DNA of 64,000 nt from a virus (IMGVR_UViG_3300012943_000002:36718-100717), one strand, 5' to 3'; positions 5,901 to 57,646 are shown, counted from the stretch's first letter. The notes: generated from the sequence alone by a model not told the origin. Made by a program: numbers and translations.

Positions 5901-8900
5901 AATATATGAATATAATAGTAGAGTATTAGATGAAACTGCTCCTACTGGTGCTTATGTAAGTAGACCTAGCCAAAGAACTTATACAGATCAAGAGGATGGT
6001 ACTAGAAAAATAAATTTTGAGTACACTGGGCAAATGGGAGAAGGTAATAACGAGTGGATTAATAGTGATATTATCCTAGACCCTGACTCAACTAATAAAG
6101 GTACTAGAACAGATATTAAGATTCCTATAGGAGTTGATAGAATACCTGTATCTATATTTAATGGAATTGGAGAGTATGTAAAATCTATGCCATTTGGACA
6201 ATGGGTAGCAGAAAAAGTTGCTGAACATGGGCAAGATTTTGTAAATTCTCAGGAGTATAAAGATAAAATACCAATGATCCATTATCCTAGAGATTTTAGT
6301 AATGGAGGTAAAGGTATTATGTTTGTACATGATGTACAATGGATTTCTCCTAATAATTTTCTTCAAAGTAAGCCTGATGGTATGAAACAGGCTATAGCTA
6401 ATCTTAGAGCTATAAGAGAAGAAGTTATAAGTAGTTCTACACATTCCACTCCTAGTATTATTACTGGTAAGAGACAAACTACTTTTGAAGGTTTAATAGA
6501 CAGAAATAAAGATAATCCACCTATTACATTAAGAGAAGCTAATCCTCAAACTCAATTAATGGTAGCCATGACTAATGGCTCTACTCTTAATAGTAGCAGA
6601 AATACTATAGAATTTCCTAATGACAGTACAGCCTTAGTAAATGATCCTAATAAGCCTTTTACTAAAGGACAAATATTGGATGTGAGAAGGTATGGATTAA
6701 AAGATGGAGTAAAAACATTCATAGCTTCACCAATATTTAAAGGTAAGATAGATAAAACTACTCAACAGAATATATTTAATGCTATATACATATATATAGA
6801 TAGTAAAAATCCTAGTTATAAAACTATTATAGATAATATAAAAAGTGGTATGGGACTAGATATTACCACTAGAGACGGACTAAGAACTTACTTATCTCAT
6901 TTTATAAGAGTACAGACTTTTAGTGGAGCTAATTCAAATGCTGATGTAGATAGGATGGCTAAAAGTTCTTTAGCTCACAGTACTCCATTTATTACCTTTA
7001 TAGGAGGAAATAATATAGTATTTGGACAAGCTGGTGTAGCTATGTATATAGATCAGAAAATAAGAGAAAAATCTTTTAGACAGTATATTAGTGAAGGTAT
7101 AAATGTGGAGAAAGCTGGTCAACTAGCTGATGAGGATGCTAAGGTATATTCTAAATTTATAAATAGAGCTTCCGAAGCTACTGCTAAGAAAACAGTTTTA
7201 GATTTAATTAAACCTATCACAGTATCAGAAAAAATAGATAATAAGATAGTTAATACTACATACCCTAATAGATTAGCTTGGTTTGAAAATAATCTAGATA
7301 TAGATAGCTATCCTACTAATTTAGCTGAACCTAAACCCATAATAAATATTGTTAGAGACCCCAAAACAGGAGTTCCTAGTACAGAGGTAGCTGCTAAAAG
7401 TTATCGTGATTACTTATTAGATAAATTTACCACTAATTTAAAGAGTTATAATATTGGTACAGAGGAAAAGCCTAACTATGTTACTAATATGCAGCCAGTT
7501 ATAACCTTTGACACTGAGAAAAGGCTTAATGCACAAATAAATGGGCAGATAAAAGAAGAAACTAAAATTGAAAAAACTGAACCTGTAAAAGTAAATCAGC
7601 CAGTTAATCCTATAGAAATAAATGTAATAGGATTAAGTGATGAAGCTAAAGCTAAAATAGATGAGATTAAGAAAAGACTAGGCACAGATTTAGGTAGGAG
7701 TACTATCTATACTTTATCTCCTACTGTATTAGATGATGCTCAGAAGAATGATTTATCTAAGGAGCTAGATAATATAGCTGGATTAGACCCTATAGAACAA
7801 AATACTATAGTGACTGATATTTATACTAGTATAATTAGTAAAGTAAATTTTGATAGTGGTAAAGTAAATAAAGCAGATTTACAAGCAGAAATTAAAAGGT
7901 CTTTTACTGATAATATACTATCAGTTAAAAAAGGAGACCAGGAAGCCATAGATTATTTAAATAGTATAGCAAATACTATGACTACCGAGGAACTACAGAA
8001 TAATGGTATACAAGGACTTATTAATGATGCAAAACTTAGAATAGAAAAGGTAGATTCTATAAATAGTAACTATAAGACCTTAGAGAATATGGCATTTACT
8101 TTTGTAGATAAGTATACAGGAATAAAGCAGAGTAGAGAAAAGCTGGAAGTAAATGAAAGTGAAGATAATTACTATGAGTATGCTGATAAGGATACTGAAA
8201 ATCCTACTGATTTCTATACTGATGTACTTGCAGAATCCCCAAACAATAAGGTAACTTATGCAATGAGAAGATTTTTTGGTGATATAAGAAAATATGATAA
8301 GGAAGATAATTTAGCTGTAGGTTTTTTAGGTCGTCCTCTGTATACTCCTTCTGCTCAGATAGTTACTAGCTTACAAAATAGTTTAGTAGATACTCCTTCT
8401 GACTTTAAAACAATGTTAGATAAGTTAAGGACACTTACTGATAAGTACAATTGGATGCAAGCTGTTATTAATAAATTGGAAGATACTAGTTTAAGTGAAC
8501 AGAAAAAAAATCAGTTTGTTTCTGCTATGTCTTTTACTAGGCTTAGAATGATACATACTACACTAGCTTTTGATAGAAAGACTAGTTCTTGGAATGTAAG
8601 AGTAGAAAATACTAATACTAATGGAATAGCTGATAAAGTACAGGAAAACTGGAAAAATAATCTTACTAGTAACTCTAATTATAATCTCTTTATAAGAGAT
8701 AGTAATGGTAATGATATTCTAAATGTAGATAAGGCTAATAGTTTAATAGCTACTTATGAGGACTGGATTGGTCTTAATATCCCTGTTGTTCAAACAGATT
8801 TAAGTGGAATAAGGGAAGCTGTTAAAGCTGTTACTCTTGCTACTTCTATTACCCTTACACCTATTGGAAGCTTATTGAATGAATTAAAGAGTAATATAAT

Positions 8901-11900
8901 TAAGAAATCTGACAGAATGCAGTTCTCTATGTTTAATAGAGACTTTCAGATTACATCTCTAGGTAACGGTAAATATAAAATTAGTAGTCTAGATAGACAA
9001 ATACTACCTACTAATAGTCAAATAGAGAAATGGCTAAATGCATTTGGTATAACTCTTACACCTAAAACACTGGAAGTACTACAAAGAGATGGTTTAATAC
9101 ATAATAAACAGAGAGTAAAGCCTAAGCAACTAATGGAAGTAGGTAATACTAATGGTTTATATGGTATCCTATATAACTCACTTAAAAACCTAGTTAATAC
9201 TAATGGGCTAATTGACTTTACAGTATATGGTGGTAACCCTCTAGATAATAGTGTTATAGAATCTCTAGCTAATTTAGAAGCTAGGTATAATACAGAAGAA
9301 GTATCTAGTGGATTCAGAGCTAATAATAAAACATATTGGGGGTTAACTGCACCTAAATTTGCTACTGATAGGGCATTAGATTTGGTAGATATAAATAGTC
9401 CTATAAGAGAACAATTAGGTAAAGTATCCTTCTCAAAGGATTCATTATGGCTATTTTTATTAGATGATAATAAGTTTAAAGAACAGTTTGGAGTAAAGAC
9501 AGATGGAGCAGAAACTCTAAGGGAAGAAGGTAAGAAGTCTTATAGAAATAGGGCTAGTATAATGGATCTTTCTCCAATGGATCATGAATTGGCTAAGTGG
9601 GAAAAGTTTGCATTTATGAATGATAAGGTTATCAGATATGGTAAAGCTGATAACAGTAACTATCCCGGTACTACTATACCTCTTAGAATGTCTACAATGG
9701 CTGGATTAACTTCTTCTGATAAATCTATAATGCTAGACTTTGAAACTGCTGTATTGAATCTAAATACTACGGATTTACAAGATGGTATGTCAGATCAATT
9801 AATTAAAACTATATATGAGCAAACTGTAAAACCTGAACTAGAAAGAATGTCTAAGTTTGCTTTGAGAATGAAAGAAAAAGAAGTTAATAATATTACAGAT
9901 TATGAGAAGGGAGCTAAGATGTTCTTTATTATACCTGAGATGAATAATGTTATGGCTAAAGGAGGTCTTAAACTTACAGATGCTATAATGTCAAATCCTT
10001 ATTATTATAATACACAACTAGTAGAAAGTAGTGAAATTAAAGATGCTGTATATGATACTATAAGGAAATCTATAGATGGATTAGTAAGTAAGAAATTACA
10101 AGTATGGAATGAAATAGGTATAAAAGAAGTGCAGGATAGACAAGGAAATAAATATATAGACTTTATGGATAAGAAGTATGCCAATAAATTTGGAGATGCT
10201 TCTAATGCAGATAAATTAAAATATGCTGCTATGGATTATGAGATAAACTCTCTCATAGCCAATGCAAATAATATGATGCTATTTGCAGGTGATCCAGCTC
10301 TATATTTTAAATCAAAGTCAATAGATTCTATACAAAAAATAAAAGATAGTTTTAATAACGTAACTAAAAGACTAGCTAATCAAGTAGCTCCTGCACATAA
10401 ACTTGCAAACTCTAAAGGAGATAGGTATAAACAATTATTTATAAAAGATAAAGTATCTTCTGCCAGTAACATAGACTACTTAGAGAAACTATATGGTAAA
10501 GATAAAGTAGATGCATTTAGAGAAATTAAAAGTGCAGATGCTCAGGAATATACTACATGGAAAGAACACCTAGATAACATTACTAGACTTGGTAAAACTG
10601 CTGATTTTCTAATGGATATAACTCCAGAAGATATAGACATAGCCAGAAAATTAATATCTTCTGGTAAAGATTTTTCTGATAGGGAAATGGAGATAGTAAG
10701 AAAAGTAATGCAGCCATTAAAGCCCAGATATACAGGACAAATATATGATCCTGAACAAGATGTAATGAGAACTGTATATATTAAATCTTCTAGTTTTCCT
10801 CTAATACCACAGCTTACTAAAGGTTTTGAAATAGATAAGTTAAGGAAGAAAATGGAACAAATTGAGAAGAAAGGTCTTAATGTAAGAGCTTCTTATCAAA
10901 CTGCTAATAAAGTAGGTAGTATGAATAATGCTGCTGATATATGGAATAAAGATGGTACTATTAATCAAGAAGCTTTAGATAAAATAGAAGATAGTTCTTT
11001 AGTTCTAGATAGAGAAGGCTATGGTATTCAGCAAGATGTTCCTTATAAATCTTATAAGAATAAAGTAGATACTGTTACTTTAGGTACTCAGTTAATGAAA
11101 ATACTATTTGGTGATGGAGTAATGGATATAGACGGATTTAATCTAGATGGTAAAGAGTATACTGGAAAAGAGTTATATGAGCAATATACCAATGCTTTCA
11201 TGGATTTAATTGATCTAAAACAAGGAGAAATATTTGATGAACTAGGATTAAAAGAGAATGGCGTTCCTATTGATGAAGCAGAGACTACTAATAAATTACA
11301 GAATTTATTAAATAATGAAGCTTTAAAAAGGAATTATCCACTACAAGATATTAAAGCTTTAAAATTAGATACTAAGACTGGAACATTTACTTTACCTCTT
11401 TGGGCTAGTGCAAATAGTAATAGATTTGAAGCTATGCTTAATTCTATTATTGGTAATAGAATGGTGGCTATGAAATTACCGGGAACTAGTCTAGTTACAG
11501 GTTCAGAAGAAGGATTTATACAAAGGAAAGGATTAGGAGATTTAACTCAAAAAGAAAAATCAAATATTGTATTTACCTCTGCATGGGATGGACAGAGATT
11601 GAAAGCTACTAATACTATAGATGGTAAATTACAAATGGCTCAGGTATTTTTACCTTCAAAGTTTAGAGATAATAATGGAGAACTGATAGATTTGTTAGAT
11701 AGTAAATATACTAACAATGATAATGGGCATCTTACTCTTAAAGAAGAGATGTTTGATAAGGAATTATTATCTAGTTTATCCTTTAGAATACCAACTTCAG
11801 GACATCAATCAGGTACTAGAATAGAAATAGCTGGTTTTCTACCACATACTATGGGAGATTTAATTATAGTACCTAATACATTTGTTACTCAAAAAGGACT

Positions 11901-55868: not shown

Positions 55869-56033
55869 TTATTTTATAGACTGTACATTATAGTAAGTAG
55901 TATCAGTATCAACTACTGTTACTAATCTAACTTGTATAATCTTATTTTCTTGATTTGGTTTTACTTGTTCTTTAGTACAACTGATAGCTATAACTATAAG
56001 AACTAATAGTAGTAAATAAAATATCTTTTTCAT
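55869..56033 (-). CDS. Small lipoprotein
   Basis: MKKIFYLLLLVLIVIAISC lipobox; start overlaps the upstream stop. Confidence 0.65.
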   Translation of the reverse strand: MKKIFYLLLLVLIVIAISCTKEQVKPNQENKIIQVRLVTVVDTDTTYYNVQSIK

Positions 56034-56566
56034 TGTATACTTATTGATTTGATAAAATGTTGTTTCAGTCCTACTACTGTAGGCACATCTAGCTTTATTA
56101 ACTTCCATCCATTATCAGATAAATATTGAAGATAAAAAGAAGTATTATTACCCGGTGTACTATTATATGCATCAAATGATACTTGTAGTTGATCTCCTAT
56201 TTTTTTAAACACAATATCTGATACTATAATTGGTAATGTACCACAATAAGTAACTAAATGTACCCAACAATCACATTTACTACCATTAACTTGAGCTTCT
56301 ATAAATTTAGCATCTGGAAGCATGTGAATAACTTTCTGTTCATGTTTATCTAATGATAAACTAGTCTCTACAGTTCCATGTATTGTTACCGTTACAGAAT
56401 AATTATTAAGATTTTTGATGGTTGTTACATTATGGTCAATCTCCAACTTTATATTATCTGTTGTTGATGAACCTGTCTCAATTGTTGGTTGCATTTGTGC
56501 GTGTACGCTACTACCTATAAGCATTATAAATAGTATAAGTAGAAATATGATAATAAACTGTTTCAT
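56030..56566 (-). CDS. Exported beta-rich protein with a Bacteroidota 'LPV/LPI' Ig-like module
   Basis: Signal peptide ending VHA-Q; GTLPIIVSD...LQVSF...NNTSFYLQY..DNGWK. Confidence 0.6.
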   Translation of the reverse strand: MKQFIIIFLLILFIMLIGSSVHAQMQPTIETGSSTTDNIKLEIDHNVTTIKNLNNYSVTVTIHGTVETSLSLDKHEQKVIHMLPDAKFIEAQVNGSKCDCWVHLVTYCGTLPIIVSDIVFKKIGDQLQVSFDAYNSTPGNNTSFYLQYLSDNGWKLIKLDVPTVVGLKQHFIKSISIQ

Positions 56567-56601: not shown

Positions 56602-56847
56602 AATATCCCTCTGCACTCAATTGTAATAGCTGCCTCCCAGACATTTTTAACTGCTGTAGTCATCGCAGTTCACTATTACAACTGCTCACCCTTGGGAGCT
56701 GATTCCATAGTTTTCTCGATGCTTGTTTCCAAGTCCTAATACTTCCTATATCAATCAGGTAGTTTCACATCTTATCGAGGTAAGGCTACTACGCCTACTT
56801 GTACCTTAAAGATGCTTATGCTACGTGAGTTATGGTGCATTGCTATT
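56602..56847 (-). ncRNA. Twister-ribozyme-like RNA (P1-type with P5) interrupted by a 126-nt insert
   Basis: CAA-TGCA-CC-ATAA-CTCAC-[insert]-CTCCC-AA-GG-GTGAG-P5-TGCA-GAGGG reproduces P2, T2, P4 and T1 of twister. Confidence 0.65.
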
Positions 56848-56999: not shown

Positions 57000-57392
57000 C
57001 TAGTTTAATATTTGTTCTAACATACTATCAGTTACCTTCTTTTCAGCTATGCCTTCTTTCATAACTCTTTCTACCATAGGTAACACTAATGTGTACTCTT
57101 CTAAATTGTCACACATTGCTGCTATCTCTTTGTAAAGATTGAGAGGATTTCTGAAATATTTAGGGTCTTTACCTCCAAATGCTTCTTTCAACTCTTCTTT
57201 TTGTTGTTCAGTTCCTTCTTCTCCTATTGTATCAACTATCATAGATACTAGAGGATGAGCACGAGAAGCAAATGTAGCTGTAGCTTCTGCTGCTTGTTTT
57301 ATTAAGCTAAGTGCTCTTTCACTGGCTATACCTAGTCCTGCTCCCATTTTTCCATTTTCTGGAGTAATGTCTAAATTGATTTTAAGTTCCAT
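57000..57392 (-). CDS. Hypothetical protein, paralog of 45011..45328
   Basis: Likely start MELKINL at 57392; CDNLEEYT motif. Confidence 0.65.
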   Translation of the reverse strand: MELKINLDITPENGKMGAGLGIASERALSLIKQAAEATATFASRAHPLVSMIVDTIGEEGTEQQKEELKEAFGGKDPKYFRNPLNLYKEIAAMCDNLEEYTLVLPMVERVMKEGIAEKKVTDSMLEQILN

Positions 57393-57646
57393 TTTAATTT
57401 GTTTTAAGTGATTAATAATATATTTTAGCACCTACAGCATTACTTGTGCTTGGGAACTTAATCCACTACACTATATGCTAACTAATCTGTTTAGGTCTAG
57501 CTGAGAACTCATTCGTATTAATAGCTTCTGTCAATTAGCTACTGACCCAGTTCTTTCTCAAGGGACTAATACGTATAGGATTTCGCCTATTATCTTTATT
57601 CAGATATTGCTTCTGAAAAGGTATTTAATGTTTAACCTTTAAGTTT

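Follow-up and report, generated by a model that had tools for sequence, protein, structure and literature searches.

Genomic setting

The window analysed here, a stretch of 64,000 nt, is part of a 100,717-bp virus record in IMG/VR that has direct terminal repeats and a G+C content of ~30%. The genome encodes a helicase (PHROG Dda-like), a DNA polymerase and a terminase-like protein, as well as two giant open reading frames of 3,913 and 1,572 amino acids. Based on its 100.7-kb length, its composition and the giant reading frames, we read the phage as crAss-like. The element under study lies on the minus strand within a 433-nt gap between two genes of the same strand (Table 1). For both flanking proteins, no relatives, no PHROG family and no convincing Pfam match were found, and the synteny route to related loci failed since both are ORFans. 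Three relatives linked through the helicase (L002–L004, ~60% amino-acid identity) show no DNA similarity at the site of the element, and a blastn search of the region against GenBank phages returned only a 41-nt chance match.

One gene upstream, an intergenic RNA (57440–57500, minus strand) contains UAGUGUAGUGGAUUAAGUUCCCAAGC, the first part of which resembles a tRNA D-arm. This segment gave no match with the family profile described below or with fuzzy motifs and is not a second twister of the family.

Table 1. Features of the locus in 5' to 3' order of the minus strand, with positions counted from the first nucleotide of the window.
Feature	Position	Strand	Description
Upstream gene	57000–57431	minus	143-residue ORFan; ends 158 nt 5' of the cleavage-site AA
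P1, 5' strand AAUA	56844–56847	minus	Followed by unpaired G56843; four A-U pairs beside a G.A mismatch; weak
Cleavage site C56842^A56841, A56840	56840–56842	minus	N^AA of junction J1-2; predicted cleavage
P2, 5' strand UGCA	56836–56839	minus	Partner 56615–56612
T2 pseudoknot, 5' strand CC	56834–56835	minus	Complementary to GG 56691–56690
Junction AUAA	56833–56830	minus	Precedes the P4 5' strand
P4, 5' strand CUCAC	56825–56829	minus	Partner 56689–56685
Insert (arm)	56824–56699	minus	126 nt; separates P4 (5' strand) from the U-CCC-AA-GG loop
Arm hairpin A	56759–56824	minus	Outer helix GUAG/CUAC, conserved internal loop, inner helix CAUCUU/AAGAUG, variable tip
Arm hairpin B	56699–56758	minus	Closing helix CUGAUU/AAUCAG; variable interior including a CUUG-GAAA-CAAG hairpin
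Loop L4 core	56690–56698	minus	C, U56697, CCC (T1 5' strand, 56696–56694), AA (56693–56692), GG (T2 3' strand, 56691–56690)
P4, 3' strand GUGAG	56685–56689	minus	Followed by linker C56684
P5	56619–56683	minus	11-bp stem AGUUGUAAUAG/CUAUUACAAUU, 43-nt variable interior; canonical P5 site
GAG linker, P2 3' strand UGCA, G56611, A56610, GGG	56607–56618	minus	P2 3' strand 56615–56612; GGG (56609–56607) is the T1 3' strand
P1, 3' strand UAUU	56602–56605	minus	Preceded by unpaired A56606
Downstream gene	56030–56566	minus	178-residue ORFan with a signal-peptide-like N-terminus; ATG 40 nt 3' of the ribozyme

Architecture of the element

The minus-strand sequence from 56847 to 56602 agrees base for base with the string on which the original prediction was based, and reads AAUA-G-C^AA-UGCA-CC-AUAA-CUCAC, the 126-nt insert, CU-CCC-AA-GG-GUGAG-C, the P5 hairpin and finally GAG-UGCA-GA-GGG-A-UAUU. 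The prediction had described this stretch as a twister ribozyme scaffold interrupted in its catalytic loop. The sequence hallmarks of that fold are all in place, with P1 as a weak stem, and the element belongs to a homologous family with covarying helices (see below). All catalytic and pseudoknot nucleotides are intact, and G56611-A56610 corresponds to the position of the general-base G. The proposed cleavage between 56842 and 56841 gains support from the intact C56842^AA and from the retention of AA in the family, and remains a prediction from comparative data.

Folded alone, the insert reaches −32.3 kcal/mol, with a z score of −3.35 against 200 shuffles, which bears out the earlier view of it as a structured domain; its homologues in 22 viral contigs show that it is also conserved. 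Two of the pairings originally drawn within it had to be revised. The helix given as cctgat/attagg is replaced by CUGAUU/AAUCAG, the conserved closing helix of hairpin B. For the crossing pairing ctcgat/atcgag, comparison with shuffles gave a p of about 0.29, as expected by chance, and the 29 homologues examined do not share it. A further complementarity links UGGGAG in the P5 interior (56631–56646, minus strand) with CUCCCA of L4 and was matched in none of 50 shuffles. Such an off-switch pairing does not recur in 131 relatives, and the complementarity is probably strain-specific or due to chance.

Identification and extent of the family

Homologues were located with sequence patterns. The first, derived from the 3' half (CTCCCAAGGGTGAG and TGCAGAGGG separated by 55–85 nt; 23 fixed bases), recurs exactly in 22 viral contigs, where the chance expectation by our own estimate is well below one; homology among the 22 contigs extends over the complete element with its insert. 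A second pattern, designed for the site where hairpins A and B join, yielded 17 further loci, and a relaxed pattern restricted to the arm matched 72 stretches of viral contigs, from which 48 copies were parsed. An arm-less pattern, allowing 0–30 nt between CUCAC and UCCCAAGG, found at least 120 viral contigs. Among the matches listed, the gap at the arm site is a single U in all 118 arm-less loci examined, and TGCAGAGGG, which lay outside the search pattern, follows exactly in 109 of these 118. The cleavage-site trinucleotide is UAA in 107 and CAA in 3 of the 118 arm-less members listed, so that the C at position N-1 of the element is a rare variant. The family as a whole comprises well over 150 copies in IMG/VR contigs.

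The arm-bearing members share one plan. The 5' half consists of P1, N^AA, UGCA, CC, either AUU or AYAA, and CUCAC. Hairpin A follows as G-N-R-G, a conserved loop, ACUUCUUA, a variable tip, UAAGAUGU-GAAA and C-Y-N-C, and hairpin B as CUGAUUA, a variable tip and UAAUCAG. The 3' half consists of C-U-CCC-AA-GG, GUGAG, C, P5 (AGUUGUAAU, a variable tip and AUUACAACU), GAG, UGCA, GAGGG and the closing strand of P1.

An nhmmer profile built from 55 short arm-less members was run against the whole 100.7-kb genome and matched only the locus at 56847–56602, from which it follows that this genome holds one copy of the family. The match falls into two collinear pieces, 56843–56825 and 56701–56601, that flank the insert. 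When 56700–56824 were removed, the spliced sequence gave one end-to-end match of 69.4 bits (E = 2.4e-21), compared with a best score of −0.6 bits among 200 shuffles. The expectation that the element would score as a twister once its insert was deleted is thus borne out, in profile-HMM form and against the arm-less family.

Among prokaryotic species genomes, one match was obtained in 185,579, on a 3.8-kb contig of a metagenome-assembled genome (MAG). The sole prokaryotic carrier, the ~1-Mb MAG G003, has copies on several short contigs (C89, C91, C96 and C120; L044 to L052), which are probably phage DNA binned into the MAG. The twister family with P5 and without P3 is essentially confined to phages. 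Our search of the literature on twister together with phages or Crassvirales found no paper describing such a family.

Family copies occur in arrays inside RNA-rich islands. An arm-less copy (at 6736) and an arm-bearing copy (at 7392) lie on one contig in L027. L018 holds two arm-bearing copies ~650 nt apart, together with an L4-like motif at 8491 that has no recognizable 5' head.

Covariation and conservation

The proposed secondary structure was tested on an alignment of 30 sequences, using all proposed helices except P1 (44 pairs). Paired combinations fill 93.7% of the cells, compared with 35–46% in controls in which the partners were slid by 1–3 columns, and compensatory changes are found in 25 of the 44 pairs. 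P2 is paired throughout (100%), with compensatory changes in all four pairs (CACA/UGUG, UGUA/UACA and UGCG/CGCA), and P4 is 98.7% paired, with changes in four of five pairs. P5 is 91% paired (8/11 pairs with compensatory changes), and its stem base is conserved in arm-less and arm-bearing members alike. In the arm, the outer helix of hairpin A is 100% paired, with compensatory changes in two of four pairs that include a G-C to A-U swap dividing the sequences 18 versus 11. The closing helix of hairpin B is 96.5% paired, with the variants CUGACUA/UAGUCAG, AAUGAUUA/UAAUCAUU and ACUGAUAA/UUAUCAGU; its covariation count is partly due to a one-column register shift in the alignment. Outside the alignment, at least four contiguous P1 pairs are present in 46 of 108 arm-less members listed, in 24 distinct 4-bp types, and covarying examples include UUUUAC/GUAAAA, UUUUGU/GCAAAA and CGCGUU/AACGCG. 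P1, P2, P4, P5 and both arm hairpins therefore covary. The pseudoknot strands are of a different kind: T1 is 97.8% paired and invariant, without compensatory changes, and T2 is 96.7% paired, without compensatory changes and with one-sided changes only (UC/GG) and some CC/GA mismatches.

The 48 arm-selected copies give a similar picture. P4 is CUCAC/GUGAG in 27, CUCAU/AUGAG in seven, CUACA/UGUAG in three, and CUCUU/AAGAG and CUAUC/GAUAG in one each; alternatives seen in the family also include CCCAU/AUGGG. T2 is CC/GG in 31, UC/GG in six and a mismatched CC/GA in five. The core is kept in most of these copies, with AA in 43, UCCCAA in 46 and GAGGG in 42 of the 48.

Because the arm, and not the core, was the basis for selecting these copies, the retention of core motifs in 85–95% of them points to selection on the active site. 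This bears on an alternative reading, in which the element is a structured RNA derived from a twister and freed from the need to cleave. The arm and P5 would then be the functional parts, for instance of a decoy, a platform for proteins or a stable RNA, with the core as no more than a scaffold. Such an RNA would be in keeping with the copies in which a degenerate core accompanies an intact arm (L017, L028 and L038) and with the arrays in RNA-rich islands. We nevertheless regard it as improbable, given both this retention and the complete set of catalytic and pseudoknot nucleotides in the element itself.

The degenerate copies differ in what they have lost. In L017 (10168–10469) and L028 (2577–2848) the arm is intact and the core has decayed, with AA and CC absent; L028 has GAUGG. 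In L038 (minus strand; arm motif at 11150–11172), P5 and GAGGG are missing, and a 3' stretch is complementary to the copy's own 5' head (UAAUGCACCAU/AUGGUGCAUUA).

The accessory arm

The insert is a conserved accessory arm of two hairpins at a fixed site. The subfamily that bears it is defined by a hairpin A of the form G-N-R-G ... AAGAUGUGAAA-C-Y-N-C and a hairpin B of the form CUGAUUA ... UAAUCAG, placed between the 5' strand of P4 and C-U-CCC. In the element these read GUAG ... AAGAUGUGAAACUAC and CUGAUUG ... GGAAUCAG. The element shares with L009 a sub-variant of the hairpin A loop, CAUAAG-CAUCUU.

Conservation within the arm is very uneven. The 3' strand of hairpin A, AAGAUGUGAAAC, hardly varies, and this holds even for copies located by the 3'-half pattern alone. 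At the base of this hairpin it lies opposite AUAUAAAGACUUCUUA, with a U.U column that is always unpaired, and the conservation of this part is about equal to that of the active site. The hairpin tips, on the other hand, are hypervariable in sequence and span lengths from 1 to about 130 nt; either of the two hairpins can be reduced to a stub, as in L013, L008 and L039. Recurrent kissing among the interiors of hairpin A, hairpin B and P5 was found at chance level only. The conservation at the base of hairpin A is in keeping with a module for docking or folding, and this part could also be a binding site.

In all 72 stretches matched by the arm pattern and all 48 parsed copies, the arm occupies the identical site, within a twister core or a decayed one; none was found outside such a core in the arm-selected samples. 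The original prediction had offered a small mobile RNA or a nested ribozyme as the nature of the insert; on this reading a mobile element, a nested ribozyme or an intron would have entered a twister gene and would require excision. It is true that arm-less and arm-bearing forms have near-identical cores, both being present in contig L027, and that the junction variants AUU and AYAA each occur with and without the arm. The latter observation means that gain, loss or exchange of the arm may have happened repeatedly. A mobile origin is nonetheless very improbable: the site is the same in every arm-bearing copy examined, flanking repeats are absent, the 100.7-kb genome contains no second copy of the insert, and the insert matches no Rfam family, including ribozymes, introns, riboswitches and aptamers. 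The existence of at least 120 relatives without the arm also tells against the meanings first proposed for the insert.

An allosteric ribozyme had also been raised at the outset. In such a twister the arm would act as a sensor of a small molecule or as a docking domain for a phage or host protein; its folding or occupancy would determine if the neighboring CCC strand is free to enter T1, and cleavage would be conditional. The position of the arm is suggestive, as it enters the core immediately before (5' of) the T1 strand, and so are the hairpin A loop and inner helix (AAGAUGUGAAAC with its unpaired U.U), which are conserved beyond the needs of simple pairing, and the few copies that keep the arm while the core has decayed. 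The same core, however, serves at least 120 relatives that have no arm; the distal parts of the hairpins are hypervariable and reducible to minimal hairpins; no alternative pairing between arm and core recurs; and no riboswitch or aptamer of Rfam is matched. We consider a regulated twister unlikely on this evidence, and favor the arm as a structural or folding domain of a self-cleaving ribozyme. Of the original interpretation, the scaffold, the cleavage site and the structured insert are retained, whereas the meanings proposed for the insert are not.

Comparison with twister and other ribozymes

Twister is among the best-studied small ribozymes. Its essential stems are P1, P2 and P4, to which P0, P3 and P5 can be added; P2 always consists of four pairs, T1 and P2 are separated by a sheared A-G pair, and the loop U pairs with the second A (PMC5408937). 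The printed consensus of twister type P1 (RF03160) consists of P1, UAA, a 4-bp P2, GC(C), the P3 hairpin, P4, GUCCCAAGCC, P4, UAAA, P2, GAGGG and P1. Our link between the element and canonical twisters is based on this printed consensus and on the review PMC5408937.

The element has the same order of parts as type P1, with N^AA, a 4-bp P2, an L4 loop of U-CCC-AA-G-N, GA-GGG, the catalytic A at +1 and the G after P2. Its L4 core matches GUCCCAAGCC, the potential for the double pseudoknot (T1 as CCC/GGG, and T2) is present, and P5 is at its canonical site. In place of P3 it has a short junction, as does the twister of O. sativa (PMC5408937, reviewing Roth et al., 2014). An apparent short hairpin at the canonical P3 site, after CC, is seen in one arm-bearing relative (L032, 3920–4277, minus strand), in which the T1 3' strand is GAGGA.

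The differences are equally clear. Of the features set out in the review, the element departs from one: its L4 is not a terminal loop, since 126 nt plus a C lie between C56825 and U56697, at a site where the published twister consensus has no helix and where none of the optional ones (P0, P3 and P5) is located (PMC5408937). T2 is CC/GG instead of the GC/GC of RF03160 (one pair flipped), the closing pair of P4 is C-G instead of a near-invariant G-C, and P5 is long (65 nt), whereas the Rfam twister models carry almost no P5 and no insert in L4. A search for new twister arrangements reported no promising candidates (Eckert & Weinberg, 2023; PMC10085705).

The Rfam twister models RF03160, RF03154 and RF02684 accordingly give no match to the undeleted element, even at E ≤ 10, a silence that we attribute to the arm and the long P5. 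At the gathering score, cmscan of the window, L002–L004 and 17 family loci returned no twister match on any family member. The same result was obtained for L013, the smallest arm-bearing relative, at E ≤ 10, and for family members at 13 arm-less loci at E ≤ 1. RF03160 and RF02684 did not match in the phage's own genome, nor did RF03160 in two related phage genomes or in 151 genomes of the phylum of the ~1-Mb MAG. Our own loose twister descriptor gives about one spurious match per 50 kb, each locus being counted once. With the Rfam models silent and a loose descriptor that matches elsewhere, the sequence of the element by itself could not settle its identity as a twister, and these two facts are what would favor a chance resemblance in AT-rich intergenic DNA. 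That reading is hardly credible and is refuted by the family, which numbers well over 150 copies, conserves its core and shows covariation in its helices.

Among the closest systems are the arm-less members of the family (for example L053 at 2147, L064 at 13695 and L081 at 7111). They have the identical core, UAA-UGCA-CC-AUU/AYAA-CUCAC ... UCCCAAGG-GUGAG-C-P5-GAG-UGCA-GAGGG, and the same P5 stem base, and they lie between phage genes of the same strand. Where the element has hairpins A and B plus a C, they have one U, and the distance from AA to GGG has a median of 124–128 nt, compared with 235 nt in the element.

A small twister of the P3 type is found in L091 (855–923), where RF03160 gives 48.5 bits (E = 9e-8) and does not reach its gathering score, 67.2; it was the only twister match in the cmscan searches described above. 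This small twister resembles the element in its P2 (UGCA/UGCA), its phage context and its position in a ribozyme array, and differs in having a canonical P3 hairpin, a GC/GC T2 and a CCA/UGG T1, with no P5 and no arm. The CCA/UGG of T1 is a compensatory change relative to CCC/GGG. This twister lies ~115 nt upstream of an arm-less copy of the P5 type.

Among ribozymes in which cleavage is conditional, glmS is the one well-established natural self-cleaver that depends on a cofactor (PMC6765202). It shares with an arm-gated twister only the idea of an added domain that makes cleavage conditional; the fold and the mechanism are unrelated.

Proposed function

We conclude, with a probability of about 0.75, that the element at 56847–56602 (minus strand) is a type-P1 twister-fold self-cleaving ribozyme, a member of the arm-bearing subfamily of a phage family, that cuts an early polycistronic transcript. 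Self-cleavage during transcription, punctuating the early transcripts, is the best reading of the comparative evidence. Of 112 members, 99 are flanked by sequence that codes on the sense strand of the ribozyme; no open frame contains the element itself.

In the proposed mechanism, the arm would project outward from a position that is already bulged in the arm-less relatives, so that both pseudoknots (CCC/GGG of T1 and CC/GG of T2) could still form, and with them the active site (A56841 and G56611). The bulged U of the arm-less relatives suggests that this site faces outward and can carry an extension. The RNA would then cut itself between C56842 and A56841 as the early minus-strand operon is transcribed. 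P1 is dispensable for twister cleavage, and the weak P1 of the element, with its four A-U pairs, is thus compatible with activity (PMC5408937). Cleavage would part the upstream from the downstream message, and the latter would start with a 5'-OH and a compact fold of 235 nt, 40 nt before the next start codon. Decay of bacterial messages can depend on the 5' end, and an effect of such a start on message stability would have its basis there. What we infer from these comparisons is the cleavage, its consequences for the messages, and that the arm acts as a structural or folding domain instead of a sensor.

Several family loci show arrangements of their own around the cleavage site and the 3' end. 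In L031 (12881–13133, minus strand), with the same sequence in L042, two copies abut without any P1: GAGGG is followed by a single U and then by AAUGUAUC, the head of the next copy. Cleavage there would release unit-length ribozyme RNAs, as the copies abut directly. A G+C-rich hairpin and a U-run lie directly 5' of the cleavage site in L011, L013, L020, L029, L036 and L043, where the U-run doubles as the 5' strand of P1; these could be an optional P0 stem, a terminator or both. No G+C-rich hairpin adjoins the cleavage site of the element at 56847–56602.

Other structured RNAs occur close to family members. A tRNA gene is present in L015 (8440–8548, minus strand; also L016 and L021), and the one in L015, 109 nt in length with extra bases, lies 3 nt after GAGGG. 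In L028, a tRNA-like sequence is located ~45 nt after the decayed copy, downstream of 2848. A contig with a family twister also has a near-threshold match to Pistol (L068, 1398–1457; RF02679, 33.9 bits compared with a gathering score of 34.5), and different ribozyme classes appear to share the phage islands.

Biological implications

What is new here is a sizeable phage subfamily with a conserved domain inside loop L4 of a twister, which the Rfam models have missed. Annotation would gain from a covariance model of the family, with which ribozymes that now go unseen would be recovered. The subfamily marks a site at which the twister fold accommodates large additions, a point of use in ribozyme engineering, and it raises the question of whether the arm stabilizes, chaperones or regulates the fold. 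To our knowledge, natural self-cleaving ribozymes under the control of a ligand or factor are essentially unknown apart from glmS. If the arm does gate T1, the subfamily would be a natural allosteric twister, and a metabolite, or a factor of the phage or the host, would set the time at which early transcripts are cleaved. Together with the tRNA-like elements and the other ribozymes in the same islands, the family supports the view that crAss-like phages process their early transcripts by means of RNA elements of their own.
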